The position numbers and the translations under genes are program-made. Of a stretch of 64,000 bases of DNA, positions 8,079-54,759 are shown in pieces. The notes under the pieces were generated by a model that saw nothing but the letters and a program-made list of their open reading frames with translations, was not told where the DNA came from and did not search any database. Within the stretch, counting starts at the first letter, position 1, and every line of letters starts with the position of its first letter. Source of the stretch: a virus. The stretch lies in UHGV virus genome UHGV-0248979; one strand, 5' to 3'.

Positions 8079-8554
8079 CAGTATACCTCATCAAGATGTT
8101 CGCGTAGCCATGGTTTCGACTCTAAGCGCGGAATCATGTTCCGCGTGTTCGGCGAAAACCATAACGCTTCGCGATATTTCTTTTTGAAACGTTCCCAGTG
8201 ATACGAGAATGGCTTGGGTGTAAAACCGCGCTCTTTTAGCACCTCCTCCCAAACCAAGTCTTTAATAAAATCATCCACTAAAATTAATACCAGCGCTTTC
8301 CATTTACTACGTCGGTAGTGCCGTGTAAAAGATTTGCGGAGATCAGAAAAGTCCTCTCGTCGCCGAGAACGTACTACTGGAGTTGCCTTCTCTTTAAATT
8401 GCGAACAAGGATTATGTTCTATTATCGTTACAGGAACACCCCGAACACGACCTGTACGCAAGTCAATCTCGTGAGCGGGGATAACTTCAACGCAACGTAA
8501 CACTTTTGCTTTATTGCCTTCCAAGCACCGCGTCTCATATTCGACACGAATCAT
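8078..8554 (-). CDS. hypothetical protein
   Basis: 158-aa basic ORF; stop overlaps downstream start. Confidence 0.5.
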   Translation of the reverse strand: MIRVEYETRCLEGNKAKVLRCVEVIPAHEIDLRTGRVRGVPVTIIEHNPCSQFKEKATPVVRSRRREDFSDLRKSFTRHYRRSKWKALVLILVDDFIKDLVWEEVLKERGFTPKPFSYHWERFKKKYREALWFSPNTRNMIPRLESKPWLREHLDEVY

Positions 8555-8573
8555 TTTGGGCTCTCAACCATTT

Positions 8574-9050
8574 CTAATAAATCTTATCCGCAACAGAGAG
8601 AAAGATGGGGGTGTTTTCAATAAAATCCACCAAATATCCTTCTTCTGGCGGGGTGTATGACGAATCAATGTTACTGTTCGTCATACGAAAATACCGACGG
8701 GAGTCACTGGCAATAAACCATCGGTCTATTTGGAAGCCTTTTTTGGAAAAGAAACACAGCCCGTCGATGTTTGAGGGATGAACACGACACATCACCATTT
8801 GACGATCTGAATTGAGTTGAACGTATTTCAGTAAAAAGGAACCTACACCACTGCGACGAGAACCCTCGGCCACCACCAGATAAATAAGATTCCCCGGTTC
8901 CCAGATTGCAACCCCATGTGTAATATCGTCTTCAACGGCCAAAGTGATTCTAACCGGCGTTTCACGAATCGAATTTAAGTCTTTCACATATTCGCACAAT
9001 TCAGGAAATTTAGCAGAGATTTTGTCTTCGGTAATATTTAACGGTTGCAT
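8574..9050 (-). CDS. GNAT-like acetyltransferase
   Basis: 158-aa ORF with GNAT motif A-like AEGSRRSGVGSFLL and motif B-like FFSKKGF. Confidence 0.55.
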   Translation of the reverse strand: MQPLNITEDKISAKFPELCEYVKDLNSIRETPVRITLAVEDDITHGVAIWEPGNLIYLVVAEGSRRSGVGSFLLKYVQLNSDRQMVMCRVHPSNIDGLCFFSKKGFQIDRWFIASDSRRYFRMTNSNIDSSYTPPEEGYLVDFIENTPIFLSVADKIY

Positions 9051-9712
9051 TATTGTTCCCCTATCGATAAAACATTTTTAACAAATTCATCCCACGTGGT
9101 GTTCCCACCAGAAGTAAATAAACTGCTAAGTGGGACGTTTCGATGTTGTGGAATAATTGCATCGAGTTTCGTTACTGGAACTTCGCTCCATAAAGCCCAA
9201 CCGTACAACCCTTCCACCGTTTTTCTCTCACCACGTAGGGTCGGCACCCACCAAGCAAACTGAATGAATCTTTTACCGCGACAGATTTTAAGGGCGGTAG
9301 TAAAACCGTGGTCTAACATCCGAACGTCGTCAAACTTACAATTAATCGAGAAAATACCATAGCGGGTGAGTAATCTCCTTATCTGAAGTCTTAGGTCATT
9401 CTGATACTCGTTCAATTCGACAGCGTCTACAAAAACCTGTCCCTTCCCAACCCCAAACCCTTTCTTTTCTAAGTGCTCCGCTATTAACGCAGACGTACTC
9501 CCCTCCACACCCGGACAATCTAAACTGCCGGATAAAGGCACTGCACGATAATAGCGATGGACCGTCTCTTGAAAAGCGGTCGTAACAATTTTTTCGTCTT
9601 TAACGAAATCAACAATTTCCCCATTAGAGGCGACCAACGGTCCAACCTTCAGCTCCTGAATAGGTATCAGCAACGTTCTGGTCATTAAGCGTAACGGTTC
9701 CACAATTAACAC
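9050..9712 (-). CDS. hypothetical protein
   Basis: 220-aa ORF; no motif recognised. Confidence 0.5.
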   Translation of the reverse strand: MLIVEPLRLMTRTLLIPIQELKVGPLVASNGEIVDFVKDEKIVTTAFQETVHRYYRAVPLSGSLDCPGVEGSTSALIAEHLEKKGFGVGKGQVFVDAVELNEYQNDLRLQIRRLLTRYGIFSINCKFDDVRMLDHGFTTALKICRGKRFIQFAWWVPTLRGERKTVEGLYGWALWSEVPVTKLDAIIPQHRNVPLSSLFTSGGNTTWDEFVKNVLSIGEQ

Positions 9713-9749
9713 TCCTTCTTTTAAGTCTCACACTATGTTTAAAAATTGT

Positions 9750-9800
9750 AAAAATAAAAAGAAGTAACCTCTACCCGAAGGTAGAGGTTAATATTATTTC
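9750..9800. terminator. hairpin terminator
   Basis: AACCTCTACC-CGAA-GGTAGAGGTT with A-rich and T-rich flanks. Confidence 0.55.
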
Positions 9801-10372
9801 GTTGTTGGGCTTTCTGTCTTCGACTTAAGCTGGCCTGATTTCTCAAGCTTCTTCTCAACAACTTTTGTGGCTATCTCAAGAGACTTATAAGCCAACGTTT
9901 TAATCGGCCAAGTCGCAAAAACAACCAATGCAAAGAACGGTACCAACGTCACAATCAGAACATCTAGACTGTCTTCTGGAAAATGTTGATGTGTGTCGTA
10001 ACCCAGGAACCCCGTTACAATAACCGTCGCCAACGTCAGAATGGCAATAATGAACTTCTGGGAAGCGGCTAATTTCGGCCATAAGGTTAGCATGGTTTCT
10101 TTACTAACCTCATCCCCGAGAGATTCCACAGCATCAGTTGCCTGCTGATGGAATTGTTCTGATAGTTTGCCTAAATTATCAATTAACGTCGGTCGTAAGT
10201 CGGAAAGAATCTTTGTTCCCGAACGGGTAACGTCAACATCGACTTCATCCCCATACGCCGCTTTCAAGAGTTTCGTTAACTGTTCAGATTGTTCTTTACT
10301 TAACTTTTTGTTTCCAGCTTGAATCAGCAAGTCAAGTATTTCAGTGGGTAGTGCTTGTGTGCTTGGTTCCAT
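9794..10372 (-). CDS. membrane protein (two predicted TM helices)
   Basis: 192-aa ORF; hydrophobic stretches FIIAILTLATVIVTGFLGY and VLIVTLVPFFALVVFATWPI; ATG at 10372 verified. Confidence 0.5.
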   Translation of the reverse strand: MEPSTQALPTEILDLLIQAGNKKLSKEQSEQLTKLLKAAYGDEVDVDVTRSGTKILSDLRPTLIDNLGKLSEQFHQQATDAVESLGDEVSKETMLTLWPKLAASQKFIIAILTLATVIVTGFLGYDTHQHFPEDSLDVLIVTLVPFFALVVFATWPIKTLAYKSLEIATKVVEKKLEKSGQLKSKTESPTTK

Positions 10373-11016: not shown

Positions 11017-11903
11017 CAGTTAGCTGTCCCCAGGAAGAACGGCGCAGGTTGTCCGATGCGAATGGTCAAAGACAGTTTGTCATTCGTCTGTGCCAGGTTG
11101 GTAAACATCGAAATATAGTACAGCGCCTGGACCCCAATCGCCTCGTTATAGCTGAATTTAGACCCAGCTGCAGAATCCCCGGACGCTACCTGGTCTAACC
11201 CAGAACAGAGTGCCAGTTCAGAGATAATTGAACTACGCGGACTACCACGCATAATGCTCGTTACGTTCATGTATTCCTGAACATCAAAGTCTGTCCACGG
11301 AATAACCAGGTCAGCACCAGATTCGACATAACGTCCGTCTGGAATTGCGACAGTACCATCGTCATCGTAATCGTAATCCGGCAATACTTTCGGCACGGGG
11401 TTTAATTCCGTGTCTGTGTACACAAAGTCTTCGACCGTCTCAACGCCGTTCTCACGCTTGATATCGTAGTCTGACGTTTTTACAGCACGCATGTCGATAC
11501 GTTTTAAGTAATACGCCCAATACTGACGTTTATTGATGGTTTCCAGAGTACGGAAGGCGTATTTCTTACGCTGTTCGTCAGACAGATCATTGTCTTTTGT
11601 ACGCAGGACAAACGGAACGCGGGAAAACATCCCGGAAGCAATAGGTTCTTTACCTACAGGTACAACGTCAGCCACCACATCAGAGGTGTCGACCATATGA
11701 CCACGGTTGCCAATTGCCATGTACTGCAAATGAGGACGCGCTTTACCATCCGGCACTGGCGTTTGCATGAGTTTATAGAACTCATTCAGTGTGGATTTTT
11801 GTGGGTATTGCACGTCAGCACCGGTAATTAATGCGGTAGCTAAACGCATCGCATTAAGCGTTACCGTCGAGAGTTTACCGTCGTAAACTTTGACATTAGA
11901 CAT
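11016..11903 (-). CDS. hypothetical protein
   Basis: 295-aa ORF; no motif recognised. Confidence 0.5.
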   Translation of the reverse strand: MSNVKVYDGKLSTVTLNAMRLATALITGADVQYPQKSTLNEFYKLMQTPVPDGKARPHLQYMAIGNRGHMVDTSDVVADVVPVGKEPIASGMFSRVPFVLRTKDNDLSDEQRKKYAFRTLETINKRQYWAYYLKRIDMRAVKTSDYDIKRENGVETVEDFVYTDTELNPVPKVLPDYDYDDDGTVAIPDGRYVESGADLVIPWTDFDVQEYMNVTSIMRGSPRSSIISELALCSGLDQVASGDSAAGSKFSYNEAIGVQALYYISMFTNLAQTNDKLSLTIRIGQPAPFFLGTAN

Positions 11904-12423
11904 TGATTAATTCTCCTGGGCGGAACCCATCCAACGCCAATTTCGTCACAAGAGACGCCAATTTGCGTGGAGTGGAATCAGTAAATACGACCGGAATCGT
12001 TCCTTTAAAAGACAAATGATTCGGGACGAGACGAACATCATAAGAATCCAGTTCCTCTGAAATCGGCTCAATCATAATGTCGTCGGCACGCAGGTCGAGC
12101 CCTGTTTGTGCGACGATATAATCAGCCAACTCTTCGCTGGACGTTACTGCGCCTTTCGGTACACTCACCGGTTCATCGGCCAAGAACGTTGCCAAATCAA
12201 CGCGAGTTAAAATGAATTCCTGGTTACCGACAACGCCGTTACGGAAGACGGCAGCAACCTTTGATTCTAGTCCGTAACGTTGACGTTCTGCTAAGGTTAG
12301 CGGTTGAACGCCGTTTGCGTTAAACTCGATGTTATCAGCAGTATAGGATAGACTAAATACGTAGTTAATCCGGTCTACTAAAATTTGTTTAGGTGCTTTC
12401 GTTAAATCGACACGATATGCCAT
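11896..12423 (-). CDS. hypothetical protein
   Basis: 175-aa ORF; no motif recognised. Confidence 0.5.
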   Translation of the reverse strand: MAYRVDLTKAPKQILVDRINYVFSLSYTADNIEFNANGVQPLTLAERQRYGLESKVAAVFRNGVVGNQEFILTRVDLATFLADEPVSVPKGAVTSSEELADYIVAQTGLDLRADDIMIEPISEELDSYDVRLVPNHLSFKGTIPVVFTDSTPRKLASLVTKLALDGFRPGELINV

Positions 12424-12430
12424 GGTTTTC

Positions 12431-14614
12431 TCACTTAGGTAGCTGGTCTAACGTAAACCCTTCGAGATCGTTAATTTTCACCTGTTCGCTTAACGACCAG
12501 TCGTCAAGTGAAGACTTGACCTTAACAACCCCGGTGGTCGGTTCATTAATATTCACCACGACTTGCTGATTCACTCTCACACGGATACCCATGTAAATGT
12601 TCATCCGTAGTTTGATGTGTTGCGGCATGGACAGCTCTTTAATCACCGGCGCTGCGGGAAGCACTTTGTCCGTCGTCATGTGTTGATGTCGCGTAACTGA
12701 CTGTACGCCTAAGAGAGGTTCAATGATGGTAACTGTACCCTCCCCACTCATAGGGATATCCCCTAAGATTGGACAAAGCGGGTCCATAACGTCGTAAGAA
12801 TCTGACCCCATCCGCGCAGCAAAATGTACGGTATACGACGAAAGCTTGGTCATCAATCGAACCATCGCACGTTGTATTTCAGATTGCGAAATAGTTGCAC
12901 GCGTTTCGAGGTTTGTTGCGGTGTTCAATGCATCAGTTGCGATATCTTGCCACGTCTCTGCGGAGACCAGTGTGTAGTCTAAACCGAAGGTCTTAAAGAA
13001 CTCATCGTAGTTACGATACTTTAACTTTAAATCACATCGGTAATCGCGATAATGGTAATCGAACAACATTAGGCCCGCTGCACGGTCGGGAATTTTACGG
13101 CGGTTTTGGCTGTAACGCCAACGGCGTCGCTTCTGCAAAATAATTTCATTAACAGTGTCGTAAAGTTCATCGGCACTGAGAATGGTTCCGACTACCTCGG
13201 TGTGGGTGTCGGTGTAGTAGTTAATCAGTGCGTCGAAACGGTGTTCCCAACTCGGGATAAGATGTTGTTCCATTTCATCGAACGAAACCCATCGTTTAAT
13301 CAAAACATCAAAAACGTTAAATACCGGGATTTCTTCAAGAGCGACATCGGAGTAACCTTTGTACGCGGCGTACAAAAACAACGCCAACAGCTCTTTCGAA
13401 CTCATTTTTAACGTGTCGCCGTTGGTCGGGTTAAGAATCTCGTGGTAGATGCTGTATTTTCCCTTCGCGACCAAATGCACCCATTCATTAAAGAGGTTAT
13501 GTGTGTATTCAAAACGCTCAATAGCTTCTGGGTCAACAGCGGTGACTTCTACGAGTTTCGTCGTTAAGTTGGGGTATTGTGTCAGACTCAGTCGGGTGTC
13601 TAAGTCTTCTTGATACTCCGGTTCGTACGCCGGGTTATTATACGCTAACCCCACCTCTTTTTGGATTATGTCCGTAGTGGCAACAATATCCAAATCGCGT
13701 CCAGAGTCTTTCTCTGTGTAGTTTAAAGATTGCTGATAGCCGATAGGTAACGGTGTTAAGGAATTATCATCGTTATCTTTCGGTTCGTGAATCTGCTGTG
13801 CAACATTATACCCAACCGCAGGCATTCCCCAACCTGTCAATAGCGCATCGATTTGCCAATCGAAGATCTCCTCTTTCCCTGAATTGCGTTCCCAGTATCG
13901 GATATTCCGATAAAGAATGAATTTTTGTTTCTGAGTCAGATACGGCATAAACTCATGCAGTTCCTGATGCGAAGCTAAAAATTCGGTAACGAAGAAAGAG
14001 TGCGTTTCTGTCGTATGCTGTAAAGAAGAACGTATATAACCAATTATGCCTGGTAACTGAGGAAACAACATGCAATAGAAAGCTAACACAAACGCATCGT
14101 TGTGGACCTTCCAACCCTCAGCCATGTAACGGACATGTGCCGCACGAATTCTCGCTTCCAGTCGGCTAATCAATGACGTCTCTTGCGATTCTACTAACGA
14201 GCTGTCGTAATACAAAATAGAACAATCGTCTACACGTAAAGCGTATTTTAAATCGATTGGCGTAAAGACGCCGCGAATATAAATCGCGTATTCGGGATAA
14301 CTTGCGATCAACGCCTCGATGTACTCAGCATTCGAACGAAAAACGTTAGAGGTCTTTTTATGACGGGACAGGTTGGCTGTCGTTAATTCTATCTGCTCTT
14401 GCGTGTCGAGCGACGTTATGTAAATGGGTTTATCCATTTCGTGACGTTGTCCTGCTAAATGCAGGTAGTATCGCCACGTACTACGGTTATCGGAAACGAA
14501 ACCGCCGTTCTCGGTTATTGCCAGATTCATCTGTTGTGCGATTGATTCTGATTTAATAATCAGCGATTTCGCCAACGTGATGTTCTGATCACGAAATATG
14601 TTAAATCTCTGCAT
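12431..14614 (-). CDS. large hypothetical protein (possible virion protein)
   Basis: ~727-aa ORF; track start at 14626 is TTG, first ATG at 14614 preferred; divergent from the plus gene at 14626. Confidence 0.5.
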   Translation of the reverse strand: MQRFNIFRDQNITLAKSLIIKSESIAQQMNLAITENGGFVSDNRSTWRYYLHLAGQRHEMDKPIYITSLDTQEQIELTTANLSRHKKTSNVFRSNAEYIEALIASYPEYAIYIRGVFTPIDLKYALRVDDCSILYYDSSLVESQETSLISRLEARIRAAHVRYMAEGWKVHNDAFVLAFYCMLFPQLPGIIGYIRSSLQHTTETHSFFVTEFLASHQELHEFMPYLTQKQKFILYRNIRYWERNSGKEEIFDWQIDALLTGWGMPAVGYNVAQQIHEPKDNDDNSLTPLPIGYQQSLNYTEKDSGRDLDIVATTDIIQKEVGLAYNNPAYEPEYQEDLDTRLSLTQYPNLTTKLVEVTAVDPEAIERFEYTHNLFNEWVHLVAKGKYSIYHEILNPTNGDTLKMSSKELLALFLYAAYKGYSDVALEEIPVFNVFDVLIKRWVSFDEMEQHLIPSWEHRFDALINYYTDTHTEVVGTILSADELYDTVNEIILQKRRRWRYSQNRRKIPDRAAGLMLFDYHYRDYRCDLKLKYRNYDEFFKTFGLDYTLVSAETWQDIATDALNTATNLETRATISQSEIQRAMVRLMTKLSSYTVHFAARMGSDSYDVMDPLCPILGDIPMSGEGTVTIIEPLLGVQSVTRHQHMTTDKVLPAAPVIKELSMPQHIKLRMNIYMGIRVRVNQQVVVNINEPTTGVVKVKSSLDDWSLSEQVKINDLEGFTLDQLPK

Positions 14615-19771: not shown

Positions 19772-21547
19772 TTAACGGCCAATCTTCGCAATGTCTTCTT
19801 CGGTTGCTTGGATCAAGTCGTTGAGTTTTGGATTACGTACCATCACCAGTTGGGTATTCGTCTTCATATACGGATTGAGAATGCCCGATTTGAACGGTGA
19901 TGATTTCGGAATGTAATACACGTTACCACATTCCAGATGAGATGCAGAGGCATGTTTTGTCCGGTCGTTAAGGTTAACCGTCTTACCGCCCTTGCTGCTA
20001 CGTTTTGATTCTGTTTCTGTCTGGCTGATAGCATGGGTTGAAACCCCCAGCACCATAGACTCTGTAGAAGCGTTGAAATAACTTACACCGCCGTTACCGG
20101 TAATGTTCCGCAATACCAGGCTGGTTACAATGTCTTTATTCAACGCACTGCGTATCATGTTCGCACAAGACTCCGGTGTTCTATTCTCCGTTTGTCCCAA
20201 GTGAAAACGAATCGCAGCAATGGTAGGTGTAAAACCACGCTCACCTAATAACAGGTAATCTGTTACGGTCAGACGTTTTCCATACATTGACGGAATATCG
20301 CCTTGTTTCGTGAGACGCGTTCTCACCATCAACTTCGTCGCGTACCAGAAGAAATCAAACATATCCATATCGTCCGGGATATCGGGATCTGACATCATTA
20401 ACTCGCCACGGAATGTTGAGTTAACGTAGCGTTCACACTCCGTATAGTGTTTCGTCATGCTGTGTGCCAGTTCAATATCAGACGGTTTAAGTCCAACAAT
20501 ACTTCTCCCCAAAATCTCCCGCCAAATTGCGGAGGAATTCAGGTTTACAACATCGTCCTCCATTGCAAGTTCATTAATAGCGGTAAACAACGGCGGTAAA
20601 GGAACAACGTTGCCGTTTTTAATCGCTTGTTTTCCGCAATAATAGTGCGCTGCTTTAAAGAATGCAGAAATCGCTACGAGTAATAAGTGTTCGTTTTGAT
20701 CCCATCCCGCTTTATCGAGATTCGGTAAAGCCTCTGCAGGAACCGTCACTACGTACATAATCGCCCGATTATGCTTAGGTTCACCTGAACCGATTACTAC
20801 TTTTTTATCGAGATCGATTTCAGGTACTTTGAATGCAGGATATATCTCTACATCCACACCAGTATAACGTTTGATGGCTTCCTTAAATCCATAACGTCCG
20901 AATAACCAGTACATTAACGGTTTCTCGTCCGTATCAGGATGTGTGGCGTTTTTGGCTTTAAACAAATTGTTTGTTCCGGGCAAGAACAACTCTTCTTTCT
21001 TCCCATTCACTAAAATACGTACCGGGTGCTTACAGAATTTTAGTGACGCTTTACGTTTAAAGTCAAAATTAACAAACACCCCGCCATGCTCACGACAGAT
21101 ACCCGGCTGATGAATAACAGGCGCAACGTGGTACGTTGTCCCGTAATAGTTCATCAACCCACCACGACGAATGAATGGCAAGTTAATCGGTCTTGAGATC
21201 GGCCTTGAGTCGCCAGGAATACGGAACGACGACATGACCATATACGCATCGGTATTCGCTATAGACATCACCCCACGACGTTTATCCATTCTGCTGCTCT
21301 CTGAGCGAGACAACTTGTAGATAAAAGTTTCGAACGGCGACATTAAACGAACACCCAATACAGCCAAGCCTTCAGGAACACGCGGATTCTCTACAGGATG
21401 GTAATCTAGCTCACGTTTCAAGATACGATGCACACGATCGTGAATACCATCTTTGGCTTGTGTATATCCGACTCCTTCCGCAATCGCGCGGTTAAAGGGT
21501 ACTATTTTACCACTCTCTTTAAGCTTTTTGATTGCATCTTTAAACAC
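19772..21547 (-). CDS. hypothetical protein
   Basis: 591-aa ORF; apparent GTG start at 21547 with AAGGAG 6 nt upstream. Confidence 0.5.
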   Translation of the reverse strand: MFKDAIKKLKESGKIVPFNRAIAEGVGYTQAKDGIHDRVHRILKRELDYHPVENPRVPEGLAVLGVRLMSPFETFIYKLSRSESSRMDKRRGVMSIANTDAYMVMSSFRIPGDSRPISRPINLPFIRRGGLMNYYGTTYHVAPVIHQPGICREHGGVFVNFDFKRKASLKFCKHPVRILVNGKKEELFLPGTNNLFKAKNATHPDTDEKPLMYWLFGRYGFKEAIKRYTGVDVEIYPAFKVPEIDLDKKVVIGSGEPKHNRAIMYVVTVPAEALPNLDKAGWDQNEHLLLVAISAFFKAAHYYCGKQAIKNGNVVPLPPLFTAINELAMEDDVVNLNSSAIWREILGRSIVGLKPSDIELAHSMTKHYTECERYVNSTFRGELMMSDPDIPDDMDMFDFFWYATKLMVRTRLTKQGDIPSMYGKRLTVTDYLLLGERGFTPTIAAIRFHLGQTENRTPESCANMIRSALNKDIVTSLVLRNITGNGGVSYFNASTESMVLGVSTHAISQTETESKRSSKGGKTVNLNDRTKHASASHLECGNVYYIPKSSPFKSGILNPYMKTNTQLVMVRNPKLNDLIQATEEDIAKIGR

Positions 21548-21557
21548 GCCATGCTCC

Positions 21558-22568
21558 TTACGTTAGCATCCCTATAAATGCGACACCCGCCGCCAAATAC
21601 GCAGGGACAGATTTAAATAGGTCTGAGCCGTCCTTACGAATGTAAGAACGCGTCTCGTAGAATTCTTTACGCGCCTCAGCCCGTGACTTCGCTTCCAATT
21701 CCTGTTGTTTGAATGCTAAAGTCAATCGCTCCTTTTCTAAAGCCATGCTCTGTAGTTGTTTCTTGTGTTCCAATTCTAGCTTGTCTTTTGCCGAATCCAA
21801 GCTTTCTAATTTTTCTTTGTACTGCTCCTCTAAACGTTGCTTAATCTCAAAGAGACCGGGAACTGCTTCTTGCCATCGAAACGCGTCCGCCGCTGCCTCA
21901 TCCTTAAATAATCTAAATGGTGAAGTAATGTCGTCAAATTCAAAATGAATCATACGACTCCCTTCCACCCTCGTACCACCTCCTATTATCATGTAAACGC
22001 CTGGTTCATAATAGCGAGACGTTATTGGCTCGATTTTCATTTTCGTGCCGTAGAAACGTAGCCACCGATAGTTGTCAGGCTCATCGTAGCGCTGCACAAC
22101 AACAACACCCAATGTAAATTCAGTGCGCTCACCTCCAGGGCGCGTGGTCGGGGGTTTACTATCTAAGCGTATTGGTGTTGTTGAGAAAGCAAAGCCTAAC
22201 TGCTTTAGTACAACCAAATCTCCTCGCAGCAACGCACCAACATCGTTTACTGCATACTCTAACGTCACCTCCCCTTTTTCTTTCAATTGGTCGCAAAAGC
22301 GAGAAAATTGTTTTCCCGGCAACAGTTCAGCAAACCCATTGAGATTCGCACATCTTCCGTACGATTGATACGTCACGTAAACGATAACCCCATGCTCATC
22401 AGCGGGGTTTTTCGAAGCATTTAAAATAAAGCTACCGCCACTGGTTTCAGTGACGTGAATAGGTACGCCAGTGTTATTTTCAAACGTAACGAGTTTCCTC
22501 AATCCAGACGTTTGATACAACGAGCGTTCAGAGATACTGGGCACCACATCGATATCAAGACGTTTCAT
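21558..22568 (-). CDS. hypothetical protein with coiled coil and C-terminal membrane anchor
   Basis: 336-aa ORF; charged coiled-coil segment then C-terminal hydrophobic VPAYLAAGVAFIGMLT; ATG at 22568 verified. Confidence 0.5.
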   Translation of the reverse strand: MKRLDIDVVPSISERSLYQTSGLRKLVTFENNTGVPIHVTETSGGSFILNASKNPADEHGVIVYVTYQSYGRCANLNGFAELLPGKQFSRFCDQLKEKGEVTLEYAVNDVGALLRGDLVVLKQLGFAFSTTPIRLDSKPPTTRPGGERTEFTLGVVVVQRYDEPDNYRWLRFYGTKMKIEPITSRYYEPGVYMIIGGGTRVEGSRMIHFEFDDITSPFRLFKDEAAADAFRWQEAVPGLFEIKQRLEEQYKEKLESLDSAKDKLELEHKKQLQSMALEKERLTLAFKQQELEAKSRAEARKEFYETRSYIRKDGSDLFKSVPAYLAAGVAFIGMLT

Positions 22569-25581: not shown

Positions 25582-25594
25582 TTAAGGATGCTCC

Positions 25595-27157
25595 ATGAAT
25601 AACAAAATGATGTTGATAACCGCCTTAGCCACATTATACGCTGAAAGTCTTCTGACCGATCCTGAAAAGGACCACGACATCATAAGAAAAGTGCTGTTAG
25701 AGGCTAAGCTTCCTGATTACGCAGAGGAAGGTGACGAACGTGCCGCCCTCGTCGAAATCAAGGATATCATCACATCCATCATAGACGGCGGTATGCCTTA
25801 CGACCACACAAACGTCATGAAACGTTTGAAACTGGCCACTACGCAAATACGTCCTCTATACGATACGATTACCAAATTCCTGGAAGATGATATTCCAGAA
25901 GAACCAGAAGCACGCATCGAGCATCTTAATCGCCAAGTAGCACAATACTACTTTCAGTTACGTCAAGCTATTCAAGGCGTACAACTGAAACAAAAATTGG
26001 GTCGTACGTTAGGCGCACTGAACGGTACCGAAACGCGCGTTGATTTACAAACGGCGCTCAACGACCTTAAGGATACCTTATCCACGTTCAGTGAACGCTC
26101 TCATAATAAGATTCCTTCTCTGGTAGGGGAATTGATTACTGATAATAAAGCACCTTTCGTGCACGTTTTCGACTCTATCAGTAAGAAAGCGGCAGGGAAC
26201 GGGTTGCGTACAGGCTGGAAAGCAATTAACCAGATGCTCGGTTGTAACAAAGGGATCACCGAAGAACTCTGGCTGATGCCTGCTCTCCCCTTTAACTGTA
26301 AGTCATTATTCAGTTTATTGCTCTCTATTAGCATTCCTGTTTTCAACACCCCAGAAAAAGTGATGGCGAATGTTAAAGGTGATCTACAACCGGTTATTCT
26401 AGATTTAAGTTTAGAAAACGAATTGGATGTTAACTTGGCTTACGCGTATCAGGCACTTTACGGACACTTTGAAGGTACAGCCCCGGTGATGGTTGCGCCA
26501 GAAACCGCAACTGACGAAGAAAAAGCGTCACATAATGCACAAATGTCAGACTACCTCTGTAGTAAGATGCGGGCGAACGGTTGGGAGTATATTTTCCAAA
26601 AACACACAAACTCCGATTTTAAAATTCACTATTTGAACGATTTGATTTTAGATTTAAAACGTCGAGGTTATCATGTAGCTGGAATACGCGGAGACTATTT
26701 CGGTACTATCAGCAAAGCAGGGCACGGTAACGGCATTGCGGGTAGCGACATTAAAGAAATTTATCGTATCGCACGAAACATCCAAGTGGTACGTAATCGT
26801 GGTTTCCTGTTAGCACCACACCAAATCTCACCAGAAGGCAAAAAATTAAAAGCACTCGACCCAGCAAGTTTCTGTAAGAACTTACCTGGTCGTGGTCTTT
26901 ACGACAACTGCTCTAGCTTAGACAACGAAGCTGACGGTGAGATGTATTTTAACAAACGTGTCGTCAACGGTCACAGCTATTTAGAAGTACAACGCGGTAA
27001 ACACCGTACCATTATCGATACCAAAGAAGCTTATCATTATACTGTAATACCTTTCCGTGATGTTGGCATTTTGCCATGGGATTGTGATAAAGAAGAAACT
27101 GTAACAGCCTCGTCGATTAACGTATTTACCGGCGGCATGGGTGACGAACTCTTTTGA
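25595..27157 (+). CDS. hypothetical protein
   Basis: 520-aa ORF; ATG at 25595 with AAGGA SD; isolated plus-strand gene followed by hairpins. Confidence 0.5.
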   Translation: MNNKMMLITALATLYAESLLTDPEKDHDIIRKVLLEAKLPDYAEEGDERAALVEIKDIITSIIDGGMPYDHTNVMKRLKLATTQIRPLYDTITKFLEDDIPEEPEARIEHLNRQVAQYYFQLRQAIQGVQLKQKLGRTLGALNGTETRVDLQTALNDLKDTLSTFSERSHNKIPSLVGELITDNKAPFVHVFDSISKKAAGNGLRTGWKAINQMLGCNKGITEELWLMPALPFNCKSLFSLLLSISIPVFNTPEKVMANVKGDLQPVILDLSLENELDVNLAYAYQALYGHFEGTAPVMVAPETATDEEKASHNAQMSDYLCSKMRANGWEYIFQKHTNSDFKIHYLNDLILDLKRRGYHVAGIRGDYFGTISKAGHGNGIAGSDIKEIYRIARNIQVVRNRGFLLAPHQISPEGKKLKALDPASFCKNLPGRGLYDNCSSLDNEADGEMYFNKRVVNGHSYLEVQRGKHRTIIDTKEAYHYTVIPFRDVGILPWDCDKEETVTASSINVFTGGMGDELF

Positions 27158-41174: not shown

Positions 41175-42110
41175 TTACGCTAAACCGTATTTCTTTTCAA
41201 GACGCTCACGCTTGTGCTTGAGTTCCATCAGATGCTTTTCACTGATTTCAATCAGTTTCTCAATGTGGGCATCACCCTTACCTTCTGCGACTTGCTTTTT
41301 GTAAAGTAAGATACGCAGTTCCGCCGCTTTCGCCGCTTCTACACACTCGTCGTACTTATCCATCTGCCGTTCAGCGATATTTAAACGTACGCGCAGTATC
41401 AGTGAGATTGGGAACGGTACACTGCTCATTCCCAGTGGGTCAACGGAGCTCGAACCGAACTGTTGCGCCAACTCACCGTAAGTTTCGTCGTTAAAGATCG
41501 CTTCAGGAATTTCCGCATAATCCGCTTTCAGTTTATTCAGCGGCGTTGCCAGCACACGGACAGCAATGCAGTAAGAAATAGAACGAGTATTGAGGTATTG
41601 AAGGTCATTCGGACCGACGCCTTTTACTTCAATATTCGAGCCTTCTACGGCGGCTATTTCTTCTGCGGTTACGTAGTTAAGTAAGGTGGCACTGTAGCCT
41701 GTAAAGAAATCAATCAGGTCAAGCAGTCTGAGCACCGTTAATTTATTAAACGTCATTGAAGACGTGACTAACGCTTTACCAATGTCACGTGTAATACATT
41801 GGTCTAAGAAAGAACGCAATTGTAGCGTGTTTTCCATCGAGGCAACGATGTATTCCAGCATCGAAGGATTACGGAGACCTTTGGCTTCCAGACCGGAATT
41901 CCGCAGGTACTTAACCAAATCATCCGACATGTCCTGCACCGTTTTCGATTTGAACGGCTTGCCTTCTTTCGACGCTACCAGCTCTTGCAGAGACTGGAAA
42001 CGCGGTAAAAGTTGTTCACCAATCGCATCACAGTTTGATGAGAGCTGGTTTTTCAAGTTTGTTGCTTCAAAGCTCGGCAACAACATAGCGAGCATATTCG
42101 GGATTGCCAT
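41175..42110 (-). CDS. hypothetical protein
   Basis: 311-aa ORF; no motif recognised. Confidence 0.5.
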   Translation of the reverse strand: MAIPNMLAMLLPSFEATNLKNQLSSNCDAIGEQLLPRFQSLQELVASKEGKPFKSKTVQDMSDDLVKYLRNSGLEAKGLRNPSMLEYIVASMENTLQLRSFLDQCITRDIGKALVTSSMTFNKLTVLRLLDLIDFFTGYSATLLNYVTAEEIAAVEGSNIEVKGVGPNDLQYLNTRSISYCIAVRVLATPLNKLKADYAEIPEAIFNDETYGELAQQFGSSSVDPLGMSSVPFPISLILRVRLNIAERQMDKYDECVEAAKAAELRILLYKKQVAEGKGDAHIEKLIEISEKHLMELKHKRERLEKKYGLA

Positions 42111-42120
42111 GCCTTACCCC

Positions 42121-43227
42121 TTAAAGAACTGGCTGAGCGCCAGAGCGATACGCTTCGATGATTTTATTCACATCGGCGCTACCAGACTTCGATTTACTAA
42201 AGTCAGATTTATCGAGTTCCTGAGAGCCATTCTGACCACGGGTATAAATAGTGACACGATTCCAGGTGGTGTCCACAACAACATAGTAGACAGTCAGGGT
42301 GTCTTTGAATACACGTTGACGGATATTGAAATCGTCGAATTCGCCACCTAGCTGTGCGGTCAAGCCGTCGATTGTGTCTTGAGAAACCACCATGACGGAA
42401 GAAGCGTTATTGATAGACGGTGCCAGAGACAGCAAACCAGATAACCAGTTACCGTTCTTCTTCTCCATCATCTTACGGTAATAGCCGGACTTATCGCGAT
42501 AACGGTTCTTACGATATTCTTCTACCAGGTCGTTACAGAACGCGATGTCTTTTACGTAACTCAACGCACCAACACGTGCACGCAGCCAACGTTCCCAGAA
42601 TGTTTTCGTCTGGTCACTGAACGCAATCAGCGTTTCAATTTGTTCGGTCGGTAAGGATTTCACATCCAAACGTAGGCGCATTGGGAGTTCGACTTTATTA
42701 CCGTCACGTTCGAATGTTACTGAGAACATTTTCCCGTTGGACAACCCTTCTTGATCGAAAAGCAGTTTAATCGGTTCACCTTTCCCGCCACTGACCGAAC
42801 CTTTTGATTCCTGGGCGACCCGTCGGGCAGATTCGCCGACTGCAATGCCGATTTTATCGTATGATGGTAAACCATAACGGGCAGATTCGCCGACTGCAAG
42901 CGCTGCTAAGCGGGAACCGGTGCGGACTGCGTTATCAAGCGCACTACGACGTGTGCTGACCTGATCCAGGGTACCGATAATGTCAACATCCGGTACACCG
43001 GTTAACAGTGAGATAGCCGTTAATTGGTTTCCTGCCAGCAAAATTTGGATTTTCTCCAGAATTCCCGGAAGGTAATCTAAACCCAGCAGGCTTTGTTCGA
43101 CTAAGGTAATGTGCTCGTTATAGAGCACTGAGTTAAATTCCTCCATCGACTCCGCACGCGAACGAAACAGCATGGGAAGTCTGGAGAGGAAAGAGACAAC
43201 GCTTGTCTCAAACGTTTTTTCTAACAT
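42121..43227 (-). CDS. hypothetical protein with internal 18-codon duplication
   Basis: 368-aa ORF; 22-nt exact direct repeat at 42824-42845 and 42878-42899 encodes repeated AVGESAR segments. Confidence 0.5.
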   Translation of the reverse strand: MLEKTFETSVVSFLSRLPMLFRSRAESMEEFNSVLYNEHITLVEQSLLGLDYLPGILEKIQILLAGNQLTAISLLTGVPDVDIIGTLDQVSTRRSALDNAVRTGSRLAALAVGESARYGLPSYDKIGIAVGESARRVAQESKGSVSGGKGEPIKLLFDQEGLSNGKMFSVTFERDGNKVELPMRLRLDVKSLPTEQIETLIAFSDQTKTFWERWLRARVGALSYVKDIAFCNDLVEEYRKNRYRDKSGYYRKMMEKKNGNWLSGLLSLAPSINNASSVMVVSQDTIDGLTAQLGGEFDDFNIRQRVFKDTLTVYYVVVDTTWNRVTIYTRGQNGSQELDKSDFSKSKSGSADVNKIIEAYRSGAQPVL

Positions 43228-49682: not shown

Positions 49683-51017
49683 TTATTCGACATTAAACAT
49701 GGCTGAAGCAATACGAAGGTCGTTCGACATGTACTTCCCGATTGCACGCTGATAGTCCACAGCAGCACGTGAACGACGACCCTTCGGCGTCAAGGTATTC
49801 CAGATAAACTGATACAGATTATCTTTGTCTTTTACCGTTTCTAACAACTTGTCGATAACCGCAATACCATCCAGAATACGTTTACGTTGTTCGTTAGCAG
49901 CTTTCGTATTCTTGTCTTTAATCGTATTGAGTTCTTCAACGAGTGTACGACGCATCGCCTCAAAACGCTGCTGCGGCGGATCGTAAATGGTGTTATCCGG
50001 GTCATTTAAGATCATTCCGAACGTCACAGAGATCACCGGAATAATTGGAATCGTAGAAGAAACTATCAGCGCAGTCACGCGGAAAAGCTCCAGTGTCAAA
50101 TGGACACCCATGTTCATATACGCTGAGTTCCGCAGCAAATAGAACGGACTGGTTTCCATTTTATACAGTGCCGAGGCCAGATAAGGAGCGCCGCCAAAGC
50201 GGGAAGCAAAATCATCCGCAGCACGTTCCCATGTCCTGTTAGCAAAGCCTTGACTGCCGCTAATGTACGGACGATCTAATAACAGCTGTGTGACTAGGTG
50301 CATATAGACGTTTTCTTTTTTGTACTCAGTACAAATCGTTTCCGGCTGATTCACTTTCGTGTTCAGCATCTTTTCCACGTCTTTAACGATACGCAGGCGG
50401 ACAGTTTGGTCTTCCGTTTCCATAATGCGGTTAGCCGCAGCATCTGCCAGCAAATCAGTCACTACAGTGCGCATCAGCGTACGGAAATAATAGTAGATGT
50501 GGCCCACCTCGTGAAGAACCACCGAAGCGATCTCCAGATCGGCCAAGTTTAGTTTTTCCAGCAGCACCGGGGTAAGGTAAAGCGGAGAACCCACTTTGCT
50601 CAGGTCACCACTGATTTTTGCACTGCTGTCATCGATTGTTGTGTTTAACTCGTTTTCTTTGATGAACTTACTGTACATATCCAGGTCTTTGTTACCTGCG
50701 TACAGTGCACGAGTCATCGATGCGATGATTGGGCTGTTTGCATCCAATTTCGGTGGTTCTACACCTGCAAAAGCAACGTCAGCAAGACCCAGTTCGCTAC
50801 CGTTCTTAAAGTGAATCGTAATGCCGATATTCTTAAATACCCAATCCGAAACCCCGGCACTTTCGTAGCCCGCAGGACTGAAATCGCCTGCCCCACGAAA
50901 CTTAGCAATAACATCAGCCAATTCTGCCAGCTTCTTTTTGTCTTGGAATTTAATCGATTCTGCGGCTACAACCTTTGCATCCGCAACTGATGCAATGTGA
51001 TTTTGCCAATATCCCAT
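49683..51017 (-). CDS. hypothetical protein with HExxH motif (possible zinc metallopeptidase)
   Basis: Track ORF 49683-51050 (GTG); ATG at 51017 preceded by AAGGAA preferred; contains VVLHEVGHIYY and a C-terminal hydrophobic stretch. Confidence 0.4.
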   Translation of the reverse strand: MGYWQNHIASVADAKVVAAESIKFQDKKKLAELADVIAKFRGAGDFSPAGYESAGVSDWVFKNIGITIHFKNGSELGLADVAFAGVEPPKLDANSPIIASMTRALYAGNKDLDMYSKFIKENELNTTIDDSSAKISGDLSKVGSPLYLTPVLLEKLNLADLEIASVVLHEVGHIYYYFRTLMRTVVTDLLADAAANRIMETEDQTVRLRIVKDVEKMLNTKVNQPETICTEYKKENVYMHLVTQLLLDRPYISGSQGFANRTWERAADDFASRFGGAPYLASALYKMETSPFYLLRNSAYMNMGVHLTLELFRVTALIVSSTIPIIPVISVTFGMILNDPDNTIYDPPQQRFEAMRRTLVEELNTIKDKNTKAANEQRKRILDGIAVIDKLLETVKDKDNLYQFIWNTLTPKGRRSRAAVDYQRAIGKYMSNDLRIASAMFNVE

Positions 51018-51088
51018 TTGTGTTTCCTTTTGAGAAATTACATTACCCACAAATCAGTATAGCAGCCGCTAGATTTGAGAGTGAAATC

Positions 51089-52870
51089 ATGAATAACTAT
51101 TACGCACCGGAAGACGTTATTGCCAAGGAGTGCAAGTTTGTTTCTTACGCAACCGATCAGCAGAAAGAAAACGACTTCGTGCTCATAAAGGAGGTCGTCC
51201 ATACTAAAGATGGCAGATATATCCCACGAATTGTCATGCGTGAAAATCTGAAACGTCCCATCTACATTACTTTACCACAACATCGTAACCACAAGGAAAA
51301 GAAGGAATACGAGGAACGTAGTAAGTGTCAGGAATATTTAACAACGGATGTAATGATGTCCTCAACCATACAGATGGGTTTGGGGATTCGTTTTCCCGAC
51401 AAAAAGAAACCACTCCGCCAAGTTTGTACTTCACCGTTTGTTTACTGGGCCGATTTGCCCATTACGAGCTGGATTAAAGAAAAGTACACGCGTAAGTGGC
51501 CTAATGCTGTTTCACCCAACCGCATCTGTGTATACGACGTGGAAACTCGAGAAGAAGACAAATCTCGAGACCCCTGGATTATGAGTTTTGTTTTAGACGA
51601 CGAGATTCATTTCTTTGCTACGAAAGACTATGTCACACGCTGCGGACGTGAAAACTTTGAAGCGCGACTCGTCAATCGTGCTCAGGAATTGCTTTCTAAA
51701 ATCGCTTTTCGTGGGAAAGACGAGGACGACAATCCTATCGTTAAATACAAAAACGTTATCGACGGTTACAAAATCTTCGTTTACGAATGTCTCAATTCGG
51801 GTTGTTGTATTCAACGGATGTTTGAGGAAATTCACCCTCGTCTCCCTGACTTACTCGTCGCATGGAACCACGAGTTCGATATTTCACGTATGTTAGAAGC
51901 TTTAGAAGCAGCGGGCATTCCACCGGAAGACGTCTTCTGTCATCCAGACGTGCCGAAACAGTACCGTCGCGTCTACTTTAAGAAAGACGAAGCATCGAAG
52001 AAAACGGAATCAAAGTCACTAACAAAAGCACCTTCACAGCAGTGGCACATTCTTTATTGCACGGCGTCATTCTACTGTGTAGATGCGATGTGTCTATTCC
52101 GTTCATTGCGTGTACACGAAGGGCAACGTCCTTCTTACAAACTTAACGCGATACTGGAAACCGAGTTGGGTTTAAACAAGTTAGACTTACCGGATTTACC
52201 CTACGAGGAAAGATTGGAATGGCACTTAAAGGCACAGAAAGATTTCCCGTTAGAATACTGCGTTTATAACATCTTCGATAACCTGATGATTGTTCTGCTT
52301 GATAAAAAGACGAACGATCTGTCTTCTGCTATTTCAGTGTTGGCAGGTTATTCGATGTACGATATCTTCCCTTCTCTGCCGAAGCGAATCTGTATTGCGT
52401 ACACGTACTACCTCTATGAACAAGGTCTGGTTATCGGCTGTGTGGGTAGCGCGATGCGTAACGATTTTGACAATGAAGTCATTGGGACAGACGGTTGGAT
52501 TGTTACATTGACCGCGTGTATGAACGCAGAGAATGGCCTACGAAACATCATCAAGGAGGTTGATGATTTCTACACGGCTTTCCGTGGTCAAACCGCAGAT
52601 GCTGACTTAACCCAGGCATACCCATCCGCAACAAACATGATGAACCAGTCTCGTGAGACGACGTTAATCGAGTTATTAAGCATTCACGGTGTTCCTGAAG
52701 AAGTACGGCGTCGCGTCGGTATTAACCTTACTGCAGGTCGCGTTAACGCAATGGAGATCGCGACAGATTTCTTCCTATTACCCGATAAAAACGACGTCTT
52801 AGAAGCCTTTCTACGTCGACAAGGAGAAGCAATTACCGATCCTTTTGAATACATCAAAGCCGCAAAGTAA
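51089..52870 (+). CDS. family-B DNA polymerase fragment: 3'-5' exonuclease domain plus motif A
   Basis: Track ORF 50975-52870; ATG at 51089 preferred. Exo I-like YDVETRE, Exo II-like WNHEFDISRM, Exo III-like YNIFD, motif A-like DLTQAYPS; ORF stops before motifs B/C and is followed by a terminator. Confidence 0.6.
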   Translation: MNNYYAPEDVIAKECKFVSYATDQQKENDFVLIKEVVHTKDGRYIPRIVMRENLKRPIYITLPQHRNHKEKKEYEERSKCQEYLTTDVMMSSTIQMGLGIRFPDKKKPLRQVCTSPFVYWADLPITSWIKEKYTRKWPNAVSPNRICVYDVETREEDKSRDPWIMSFVLDDEIHFFATKDYVTRCGRENFEARLVNRAQELLSKIAFRGKDEDDNPIVKYKNVIDGYKIFVYECLNSGCCIQRMFEEIHPRLPDLLVAWNHEFDISRMLEALEAAGIPPEDVFCHPDVPKQYRRVYFKKDEASKKTESKSLTKAPSQQWHILYCTASFYCVDAMCLFRSLRVHEGQRPSYKLNAILETELGLNKLDLPDLPYEERLEWHLKAQKDFPLEYCVYNIFDNLMIVLLDKKTNDLSSAISVLAGYSMYDIFPSLPKRICIAYTYYLYEQGLVIGCVGSAMRNDFDNEVIGTDGWIVTLTACMNAENGLRNIIKEVDDFYTAFRGQTADADLTQAYPSATNMMNQSRETTLIELLSIHGVPEEVRRRVGINLTAGRVNAMEIATDFFLLPDKNDVLEAFLRRQGEAITDPFEYIKAAK

Positions 52871-52920
52871 AAAAAATAAACGTTACCCTACTCCCGATGG
52901 GAGTAGGGTAATACTTTTAT
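52871..52920. terminator. bidirectional terminator between convergent genes
   Basis: A-rich run, stem GTTACCCTACTCC...GGAGTAGGGTAAT, T-rich run. Confidence 0.7.
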
Positions 52921-53426
52921 GCCGCGTTGAAGCAGTAAGCCAGTAAGTGTTGCAGCTCTGGATCGGTCACACGTTGTACCAAACGACCAACGTTGTCACG
53001 CTGAGCGAAGTTTGCTTTATCCTGGGAATTTGCGAAACGTACTAACATATTGATGAACACGACGTATGTTTCACGTTCGGCGGAATCGTAAAACCAATCT
53101 AAATGGTAGTTCACATTCGGATAGTAGAAGATACCGCGCTTGTGTTTAATTGCAGCTTCAACGAACACGTTGAAAGCATCAACGAACGCCTGACCGCGTA
53201 GTTCAAATAACGAACGGAACGATTGATGCAGCTTACGGAAAGCATCGTCAGCTTCTGGAGTATCTTTCGGTTTATTTTGGCTAATTGCCGCGCCAGCCTC
53301 ATCGAGCTGGGTAGCAATAAGTCGCACCTGGTACGCGTCATCTTGGCTGTAATTTACCGCATTTTCCTCAGCACGTCTTACAGCTGACGGACGCTCGTCT
53401 TGTGTCGAAATATCTTTAGTTGCCAT
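52917..53426 (-). CDS. hypothetical protein
   Basis: 169-aa ORF; terminator downstream. Confidence 0.45.
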   Translation of the reverse strand: MATKDISTQDERPSAVRRAEENAVNYSQDDAYQVRLIATQLDEAGAAISQNKPKDTPEADDAFRKLHQSFRSLFELRGQAFVDAFNVFVEAAIKHKRGIFYYPNVNYHLDWFYDSAERETYVVFINMLVRFANSQDKANFAQRDNVGRLVQRVTDPELQHLLAYCFNAA

Positions 53427-53439
53427 TGGCTAATAATCC

Positions 53440-54759
53440 TTACGTAATGTGGATCGATGGATTAAATTCGTGTACCACAGTCTCTTTACCGTGCATCGCG
53501 GCCATTGCCACGGACATAACGTTAGAGAACGCCGAGGATATATCCGCAGCGATTGCACGAGGTTCTTCCCCTTTATTCGCAGACGAACACGCTGTGCAGG
53601 TGTCGATGTGGCCATACTGACATAAGATGGGTCGGCGTAACCGCACCACCTTACCTAACTGCTGCTTTAAATATTCTTCAGACAGTGGTGTCAGTTTACC
53701 ATTAACCATCGCATTCATCCCAACGTAACGTTTTACGTTATCTTCGGTAATCACAACCGGGTACGTTAGTTTCGTTCCGCAGTCGCCAGGGACGATTCGG
53801 TGGTTCTGGAAAATCATCTGGATAATACGTACCTGCTCACCCCCTTTCGCTGTTTCCGCACCACGAGAGAATGAACCTTCACGAATAGAGTTGAATTTCG
53901 CAACCAGGTTTTCCATCCCCGCCTTATCAACCTCAACTAACGCGTTCGGAATGAGCGTATAATGCCCCCCTTCCTGAAAAGACGATTCAATACCGTACAT
54001 CAGCATTAATTTACGTCGACGCATCCGTGATTTCGGCGAGTTATAAAACTCAATAGATTGGTCACCTGACAACCACTCTTTGTCTAACTCATCCAACGCT
54101 TTTTCAATCTTAACGATAACGGCAGGATCGTCTAATTCATCCTTGTGCTTCAACAGCAACGCATCGCGGATTTTATACGCATCAGGATGCACCGTAAGGC
54201 TTCGTAACGTACCGGTTGGTGCAATACCTGACGTGAGTGGAGCGAGTTCGTGTAAGCCGCTTACGAAGCGTTCGATCATACTCGGTCGAATCGCACCTTC
54301 GTTTTCTGGCTCATCGGATTCATGGTCTAAACAACGCCGATGCATCTCTTTGCGGTATTCCAACGGGTTTTGTGAAATCGCCAGATAGGGTAAACGTGTA
54401 CCGAAAGCATACCAGATAACAATCCAGTTAAAAACGTATCGTCCTACTGTCGTGGGGATAGGACCTTCTAAACCGGGATAGTCGTCGGGACGGAGTTCGA
54501 ACTGTTCTTCAGGAATAAACAGCTCCTGATCCTTTACACCATCGGTAATCGGTTCCCAACTGCCCTTGCCGTCTTCTACAGCGTAATAATGCGGTAAGCC
54601 GTCAATGTACGTAATATCAAACGCTTCGGGTTCTTCACGCCCAGTTGGAAACACCGACATGTTAAAGATAGCAATACGCCAGACCAAGCGACGCCATGCT
54701 TCGGCTTTACATGCCGCTACTAAGAACTCAAACCTCGTCATCGTGCTCTGCCTCCTCAA
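53440..54759 (-). CDS. hypothetical protein
   Basis: 439-aa ORF; contains KLMLMYG, faintly like polymerase motif B, but no YGDTDS-like motif C. Confidence 0.5.
   Translation of the reverse strand: MRRQSTMTRFEFLVAACKAEAWRRLVWRIAIFNMSVFPTGREEPEAFDITYIDGLPHYYAVEDGKGSWEPITDGVKDQELFIPEEQFELRPDDYPGLEGPIPTTVGRYVFNWIVIWYAFGTRLPYLAISQNPLEYRKEMHRRCLDHESDEPENEGAIRPSMIERFVSGLHELAPLTSGIAPTGTLRSLTVHPDAYKIRDALLLKHKDELDDPAVIVKIEKALDELDKEWLSGDQSIEFYNSPKSRMRRRKLMLMYGIESSFQEGGHYTLIPNALVEVDKAGMENLVAKFNSIREGSFSRGAETAKGGEQVRIIQMIFQNHRIVPGDCGTKLTYPVVITEDNVKRYVGMNAMVNGKLTPLSEEYLKQQLGKVVRLRRPILCQYGHIDTCTACSSANKGEEPRAIAADISSAFSNVMSVAMAAMHGKETVVHEFNPSIHIT

Follow-up and report, generated by a model that had tools for sequence, protein, structure and literature searches.

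Split replicative DNA polymerases are an already described hallmark of the chimalliviruses, the phiKZ-like, nucleus-forming jumbo phages, and they now have experimental support. Kazlauskas and Venclovas reported in 2011 that phiKZ-like phages encode a divergent family-B DNA polymerase (PolB) with the exonuclease and the polymerase on separate chains (PMC3201878). In the Salmonella jumbo phage SPN3US, gp18 and gp44 have been described as a 'split subunit DNA polymerase' (PMC5694885), and a split-subunit polymerase is also reported in PMC5105663. According to the abstract of a recent preprint (Basu et al., 1 October 2026, PMC13648687), the core polymerase of PhiKZ is a stable 1:1 complex of two proteins, DNAP-N and DNAP-C, with family-B homology and a structure from cryo-electron microscopy at 2.1 Å; a third protein, Rhc, which has an RNase H domain and a clamp-like domain, is stated there to raise the polymerase activity. 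Here, we analyse a gene at 51089-52870 within a stretch of 64,000 nucleotides of the virus genome UHGV-0248979 (hereafter the window, meaning the whole stretch). An earlier note, made from the DNA letters and a list of open reading frames (ORFs), had described this gene as a family-B polymerase that ends right after motif A, and had offered two readings, a polymerase divided between separately encoded polypeptides and a derivative that consists of the exonuclease only. Our analysis favours the first option and adds an ortholog from an uncharacterised SPN3US-like phage to the known split polymerases.

The protein encoded by the ORF aligns without gaps to SPN3US gp44 (75% identity over 590 amino acids) and matches the PHROGs family phrog_3011, labelled 'DNA polymerase', over nearly its entire length (E 5.6e-249; residues 3-583 against positions 2-573 of a profile of 576). 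Among isolated phages, the nearest relative of the gene is found in Erwinia phage Asesino (79% amino-acid identity). The relationship extends to the whole window, which has ~74% nucleotide identity to SPN3US-like Salmonella and Erwinia jumbo phages (megablast, tblastn) and is collinear, in reversed orientation, with ~30-96 kb of SPN3US (ORF-by-ORF tblastn); the window also holds the major head protein and several RNA polymerase pieces. In SPN3US, gp44 is encoded at 41224-43008 on the minus strand, and gp18, the second 'DNA polymerase', at 11544-13823, 27 kb away. When comparing the gene to PhiKZ DNAP-N and SPN3US gp44, we find the same length, the same set of motifs and the same neighbourhood, that is, a single gene oriented opposite to those around it and located beside a fragment of the beta subunit of the virion RNA polymerase. 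There is no difference in kind, and the gene in the window is a sequence variant of these known genes. We thus regard it as highly likely that the product of the ORF is DNAP-N, the N-terminal subunit in the two-chain family-B replicative polymerase of chimalliviruses. This view combines our own results on homology, motif conservation, fold, synteny, co-occurrence with the partner gene and its absence from the window with the stable 1:1 complex reported in the literature on PhiKZ.

Sequence motifs and fold of the protein were analysed with an alignment of 29 homologs of the N subunit (A1), which includes sequences down to 24% identity. The Exo I, II and III-like motifs pointed out earlier are borne out, as their catalytic residues are invariant or nearly so among the homologs and align to those of RB69 gp43 (Table 1); they follow the family-B patterns DxE, Nx2-3[FY]D and Yx3D, respectively. 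The same applies to the motif A-like DLTQAYPS, which is a genuine motif A: within DADLTQAYPS...NQSRET, none of the 29 homologs deviates at D504, D506, Y511 or P512, and D506-LTQA-Y511-P512-S513 is collinear with RB69 D411-S418. When the A1 profile was compared to the PDB, RB69 gp43 was matched in three collinear stretches (E 2e-5), and KOD and archaeal PolBs were matched as well. The third of these stretches, 'gqtaDaDitqaYPsatvvlnvskeTtl', aligns to RB69 405-431, and the likeness runs on through 'NxSxET', collinear with the exonuclease domain. With hhalign, a single unbroken alignment to residues 185-432 of RB69 gp43 spans Exo II through motif A (probability 96.9%, E 1.5e-10). A single-chain AlphaFold2 (AF2) model has a predicted local distance difference test score (pLDDT) mostly >90 for residues 1-450, and its first Foldseek match in the PDB is RB69 gp43 (E 6e-13, ~470 aligned columns); no protein other than RB69 gp43 and Pol epsilon is among the top matches. 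The motif assignments, which the earlier note had exposed to refutation by profile, thus hold in both profile and structure comparisons. No relevant family at E <= 1 was found in a Pfam scan of the ORF, and phmmer yielded no match in the PDB. Such blanks are typical of a divergent clade whose family-B kinship is shown only by profiles and structure.

The part of the enzyme that is missing from this chain is found in the gp18 family, which corresponds to Pfam PF20286 ('Divergent Family B DNA polymerase', divDNApol) and whose fingers region is aligned by PF00136. In an alignment of 32 members of the partner family (A2; positions follow the representative P0069), motif B is invariant at K157, N160, N161, S164 and G165 ('KTLNNGMSG'), motif C at S422-D-T-D-S-T427 (SDTDST), and the KxY motif is an invariant KHY at 501-503. 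The AF2 model of the partner (pLDDT 80) has RB69 gp43 as its best match and comprises two long finger helices (H115-139 and H143-161), palm strands and a thumb; motifs B and C are separated by an all-helical insert of ~200 residues. Its poorly modelled parts are the end of motif B together with motif C (pLDDT 48-65), and residues 481-490. The first 84 residues contain no invariant acidic position in A2, where the invariants of the N-terminus are F7, Y14 and R16. An N-terminal 'RDIDV..AYY' was considered as a second motif A and rejected, as its acidic positions are not conserved. Directly upstream of the DNAP-C gene P0069, at 2487-2900 of its contig (L008), we observed a gene for a small protein with an SH3 fold (PF20287, SH3DP), a conserved neighbourhood of DNAP-C that was noted by Iyer et al. 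2021 (PMC7824862).

To compare the distribution of the two subunits, we surveyed 50,697 phage records with tblastn. Matches were obtained in 300 records for the N subunit and in 302 for the partner, and the counts agree for genera including Pseudomonas (81/81), Erwinia (62/62), Vibrio (23/23), Serratia (21/21), Aeromonas (20/20), Klebsiella (16/16) and Ralstonia (13/13). In these records, the two genes are always found at separate loci, for instance at 43.5 versus 13.5 kb in pEa_SNUABM_8, at 205.8 versus 242.2 kb in SL2 and at 85.9 versus 43.0 kb in 201phi2-1. Six pairs of N subunit and partner from metagenomes have longest contigs of equal size. In addition, a profile search of 1.84 billion cluster representatives (clustered at 50% identity) resulted in 756 clusters at E < 1e-30, and the best 150 of these were examined. 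None of the 150 is an unsplit relative fused to the partner; all have a length of ~470-900 amino acids, with a mode of ~560-600. The representative P0189 (894 amino acids) has an additional C-terminal extension of ~330 residues that is acidic and alanine-rich and bears no likeness to the partner.

Two clusters from this collection are close to the window. P0001, an N subunit, is 94% identical to the ORF, and the clusters of P0001 and of the partner P0069 have 467 and 733 member sequences, respectively. They are found on contigs of ~220-226 kb in assemblies labelled Salmonella enterica (Enteritidis, Chester, Thompson, Kentucky), E. coli and Shigella. Many enterobacterial isolates were thus co-assembled with a jumbo phage close to that of the window, which could be due to a carrier state, pseudolysogeny or contamination.

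How might the two chains form one enzyme? In our reading, DNAP-N carries the N-terminal domain, a 3'-5' proofreading exonuclease that is predicted to be active, the beginning of the palm including motif A, and a lineage-specific helical tail, whereas DNAP-C, the ortholog of SPN3US gp18, carries the fingers with motif B, the remaining palm with motif C and KxY, and the thumb. The two chains would associate in a 1:1 complex, as in PhiKZ, with a composite polymerase site that combines motif A from DNAP-N, including the metal-binding aspartate D506 and the sugar or steric-gate tyrosine Y511, with motifs B and C from DNAP-C. The catalytic palm itself is thus likely to be divided, such that the motif A strand (D506, Y511) would be supplied in trans and neither chain alone would have a complete polymerase site. 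Several observations suggest a composite palm. First, motif A is invariant on DNAP-N and has no equivalent on the partner. Second, the poorly modelled parts of both isolated chains are the pieces of the active site; in the model of the window protein these are residues 454-553, including motif A, with a pLDDT of ~30-50. Third, a relative whose gene contains an intron (described below) keeps motif A in frame in its second exon. The 2.1 Å structure of PhiKZ very probably already shows the divided palm.

Several points weigh against a split polymerase with a trans-assembled site. The partner gene is absent from the window, and its presence in this genome is deduced from synteny and from its universal co-occurrence in relatives. 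We infer the trans-complementation by motif A from conservation and from low-confidence regions of the models, not from a structure, and the abstract of the PhiKZ preprint does not state where motif A is located (PMC13648687). Furthermore, earlier computational papers treat the gp44-type protein simply as a separate exonuclease (PMC3201878, PMC7824862): the 2011 paper places both catalytic aspartates, EL D229 and D398, on the partner chain (PMC3201878), and Iyer et al. 2021 describe a polymerase without a fused exonuclease (PMC7824862). If these descriptions apply, the ORF would encode a stand-alone, epsilon-like proofreading exonuclease with a vestigial motif A, and the complete polymerase site would be located on the partner. 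The partner indeed contains an aspartate, D288, in a context ('VYxGDxxHL'; 'VYxGDxxHxxKxN') that superficially resembles motif A and that is the only invariant aspartate between motifs B and C, with Y285 and N296 also invariant. However, D288 follows motif B and is thus in the wrong order, and it lies between two helices of the confidently modelled insert (pLDDT >90) and not on a strand. EL D229 likewise follows motif B and belongs to the helical insert, and its alignment column varies among the 32 family members (22 D, 9 N and 1 E). We thus rejected both residues as substitutes for motif A. The other aspartate, D398, corresponds in the alignment of EL gp021 to the second Asp of SDTD, which is motif C. 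On the side of the N subunit, a vestigial motif is difficult to reconcile with the invariance of D504, D506, Y511 and P512 in the 29 homologs and with the likeness to RB69 through 'NxSxET', collinear with the exonuclease domain. The pattern DxDxxxx[YF]P is moreover present in 141 of the 150 cluster representatives, and the nine exceptions are ORFs that stop at the motif or shortly ahead of it. An exonuclease-only protein is thus unlikely. Of the two options proposed earlier, the split polymerase is supported by the orthology to gp44, the 1:1 complex of PhiKZ and the co-occurrence in 300 and 302 records, and the exonuclease-only derivative is disfavoured by an invariant motif A that the partner does not have.

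The statement that the ORF ends right after motif A stands in so far as no motif B or C follows; it is imprecise in that 81 more residues follow motif A before the chain ends at residue 593. This C-terminal extension is conserved: T524, E528 and N553 are invariant in A1, which also contains a conserved block 'GINLTxGxxNAxEI'. Helices are predicted at residues 537-543, 551-562, 567-577 and 585-592 with a pLDDT of 43-72 in the AF2 model. We propose that the extension may serve as a docking surface for the partner subunit.

Within the family, the region around motif A appears to be prone to interruptions. The nine representatives without the motif (P0225, P0298, P0299, P0303, P0305, P0312, P0320, P0321 and P0325) have ends such as '...HVGDLDVAAS', '...SADLD' and '...HVAD', and introns or other mobile elements may have inserted repeatedly in the coding sequence of motif A. 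Homologs of ~480-525 amino acids were considered as candidates for proteins without motif A; the one that was checked, P0042, turned out to be interrupted by an intron. Its gene (L004, JGI 3300035493 Ga0376446_000006) contains a group I intron at 7443-7864 (Rfam RF00028, 51.4 bits, E 4.8e-12), which is located ~25 codons before motif A. Exon 1 ends with '...MTQWI' and exon 2 starts with 'VTLPAHM...RAQTADDDITQAYPTGEV...', so that motif A and the C-terminal helices are kept in frame. Among the phage records, DNAP-N is matched in three pieces in PhiPA3 and in two pieces in 201phi2-1 and in phiKZ-like phages, which suggests that similar interruptions may be present in these phages.

Such introns also raise the question of whether a frameshift, an intron or an assembly error could have truncated or interrupted the gene in the window itself, with the remainder immediately downstream. 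The gene model argues strongly against this. The ORF of 593 codons extends from the ATG at 51089 to the stop codon at 52868-52870 on the plus strand, and its length fits the mode of the family, in addition to the gap-free alignment with gp44. The mechanical ORF list lets the reading frame reach back to a TTG at 50975; we place the start at 51089 because the homologs begin there, as does the gene called on a metagenome contig of identical sequence, ENA ERZ27264761 k141_660. On this contig of 49,459 bp, the gene for the identical protein occupies 8523-10304. A GAGAG upstream of the ATG may function as a ribosome-binding element (Table 1). As noted earlier, the ORF is followed by a strong terminator, and the next genes are on the opposite strand: both neighbours, at 49683-51050 upstream and 52917-53426 downstream, are encoded on the minus strand. 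The hairpin of the terminator (-24.8 kcal/mol, z -6.0; an equally stable structure was found in 0/200 shuffles) scores as a terminator on both strands and sits in a gap of 46 nt between the convergent genes, with stop codons at 52870 (+) and 52917 (-). Motifs B and C (family-B consensus Kx3NSxYG and DTDS), which the earlier note had rightly found missing, are encoded neither in the ORF nor in any frame of the window. No partner was detected by tblastn with SPN3US gp18 over the 64-kb window or by a search with a hidden Markov model of A2 against every ORF of at least 30 amino acids in all six frames of the window (best E 0.11). A truncated gene with its remainder downstream is thus exceedingly improbable. 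According to the synteny with SPN3US, the partner gene, with an expected product of ~770 amino acids, should be located outside the window, ~16-19 kb from its right end, which would correspond to ~37-40 kb of contig k141_660.

Table 1. Features of the DNAP-N locus in the window (positions refer to the window)
Feature	Position	Strand	Basis
DNAP-N gene (SPN3US gp44 ortholog), 593 amino acids	51089..52870	+	Identity to gp44; match to phrog_3011
Shine-Dalgarno-like GAGAG	51077..51081	+	Read in the sequence; 7 nt upstream of ATG
N-terminal domain and 3'-5' exonuclease domain (predicted), residues 1-450	51089..52438	+	AF2 model; Foldseek
Exo I ICVYDVETREE (D150, E152)	51524..51556	+	Invariant in 29/29 homologs; aligns to RB69 Exo I region
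Exo II LLVAWNHEFDISRM, including WNHEFD (N260, D264)	51851..51892	+	Each kept in 28/29 homologs; aligns to RB69 'GWNVESFDIPY'
Exo III EYCVYNIFDNLM, including YNIFD (Y393, D397)	52253..52288	+	Invariant in 29/29 homologs; aligns to RB69 'YISYNIIDV'
Motif A region TAFRGQTADADLTQAYPSATNMMNQSRETTLI (D504, D506, Y511, P512)	52574..52669	+	Collinear with RB69 405-432
Conserved C-terminal extension, residues 528-593, ~4 predicted helices	52670..52867	+	Alignment and AF2 model
Bidirectional hairpin terminator	52882..52912	both strands	14-bp stem with 7 G-C pairs

A different way to obtain a complete polymerase from two genes is a split intein that joins the halves after translation into a single mature chain, as in the PolB of Nanoarchaeum or of PA5oct/MIJ3-type phages. 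Split-intein PolBs are present in other jumbo phages (PMC6892783), and the motif regions are common insertion sites of inteins and introns. Yet, no intein or Hint domain was detected in the ORF (Pfam, E <= 1), the tail has no conserved Cys/Ser/Thr junction or TxxH block, and the N-terminus of the partner has no conserved HN[CST]. Furthermore, the abstract on the PhiKZ enzyme reports a stable complex of two subunits (PMC13648687). Protein splicing is thus extremely unlikely, and we retain two chains that remain separate.

When comparing DNAP-N to the polymerase of RB69 and T4, we find Exo I-III and motif A ('DLTxxYPS....NxSxET') in equal order and with similar spacing, as well as a common fold of the N-terminal and exonuclease domains. 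In contrast, gp43 is a single chain, whereas the window chain stops after the first palm segment, and fingers, motif C and thumb are found on another protein; the ~200-residue helical insert between motifs B and C is a further difference of the chimallivirus partner. Divided family-B polymerases are known from other lineages. In the T4-like Aeromonas phages 44RR, 31, 25 and 65 and in Acinetobacter phage 133, gp43 is split in the finger tip, with the two ORFs 2 bp to 3 kb apart, and an engineered Pfu polymerase, divided at 467/468, retains full activity as a 1:1 complex (PMC3061061). The break in these enzymes is located between motif A and motif B, as in the chimalliviruses. The split gp43 and Pfu fragments associate in an active 1:1 complex (PMC3061061). 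Because the split gp43 and Pfu fragments form an active complex, the family-B fold tolerates a break between these motifs. The chimallivirus arrangement differs from the T4-like one in three respects: the break precedes the fingers, so that both finger helices are on the partner model; ~130 additional lineage-specific residues flank the junction; and, in relatives, the genes are ~27 kb or more apart and on opposite strands. PolB of Methanothermobacter thermautotrophicus also consists of two separately encoded polypeptides, whose distant genes are 85 kb apart and which form one enzyme (PMC3061061, PMC7776575). There, however, the split is in the palm, ~83 residues C-terminal to the finger split of Pfu, and the large fragment extends further than DNAP-N (PMC3061061).

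A similar break point may exist in another jumbo-phage lineage. On a contig of 281.7 kb (L011, ENA ERZ27060504 NODE_4), the gene at 8001-9833 encodes a distant protein that resembles the N subunit (P0063, 24% identity, Pfam PF03104). This protein stops ~85 residues past its motif A, 'MDYDMGAFYPS', and the next gene is gyrase B-like and not a polymerase half. P0063 may thus have the same break point as DNAP-N.

Two other genes in the window were considered as polymerase candidates. The earlier note had suggested a search for the palm and thumb fragment in 53440-54759 (-), which contains a weak 'KLMLMYG' segment. This gene is not the missing half; its ortholog in SPN3US is gp42, a piece of the virion RNA polymerase beta subunit (phrog_2962, E 2e-168), and it has no relative among PDB sequences. 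The gene at 19772-21562 (-) has an SPN3US ortholog labelled 'polymerase' (phrog_2943), but it was rejected as a DNA polymerase as it is a homolog of PHIKZ123, a subunit of the non-virion RNA polymerase (nvRNAP; PDB 7OGP chain E, E 2e-17). The product of the gene at 25586-27157 (+) belongs to PF20307 (divDNAB, E 1e-125) and is a divergent replicative helicase of the DnaB-like type, 84% identical to its SPN3US ortholog. This helicase is another component of the replisome of the phage family in the window.

For the annotation of this and related genomes, we conclude that the correct label of the gene is 'DNA polymerase, N-terminal (exonuclease + motif A) subunit' instead of 'hypothetical protein', 'T4-like DNA polymerase' or 'exonuclease'. 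Beyond annotation, the gain is modest and consists in the finding that motif A is conserved on DNAP-N and absent from the partner. If the palm is indeed divided, this would correct the assignment of both catalytic aspartates from 2011 as well as the label 'stand-alone exonuclease'. If the active site is assembled in trans, both genes would be jointly essential, and a mutation of D506 or Y511 would cleanly separate polymerase activity from proofreading in chimalliviruses.

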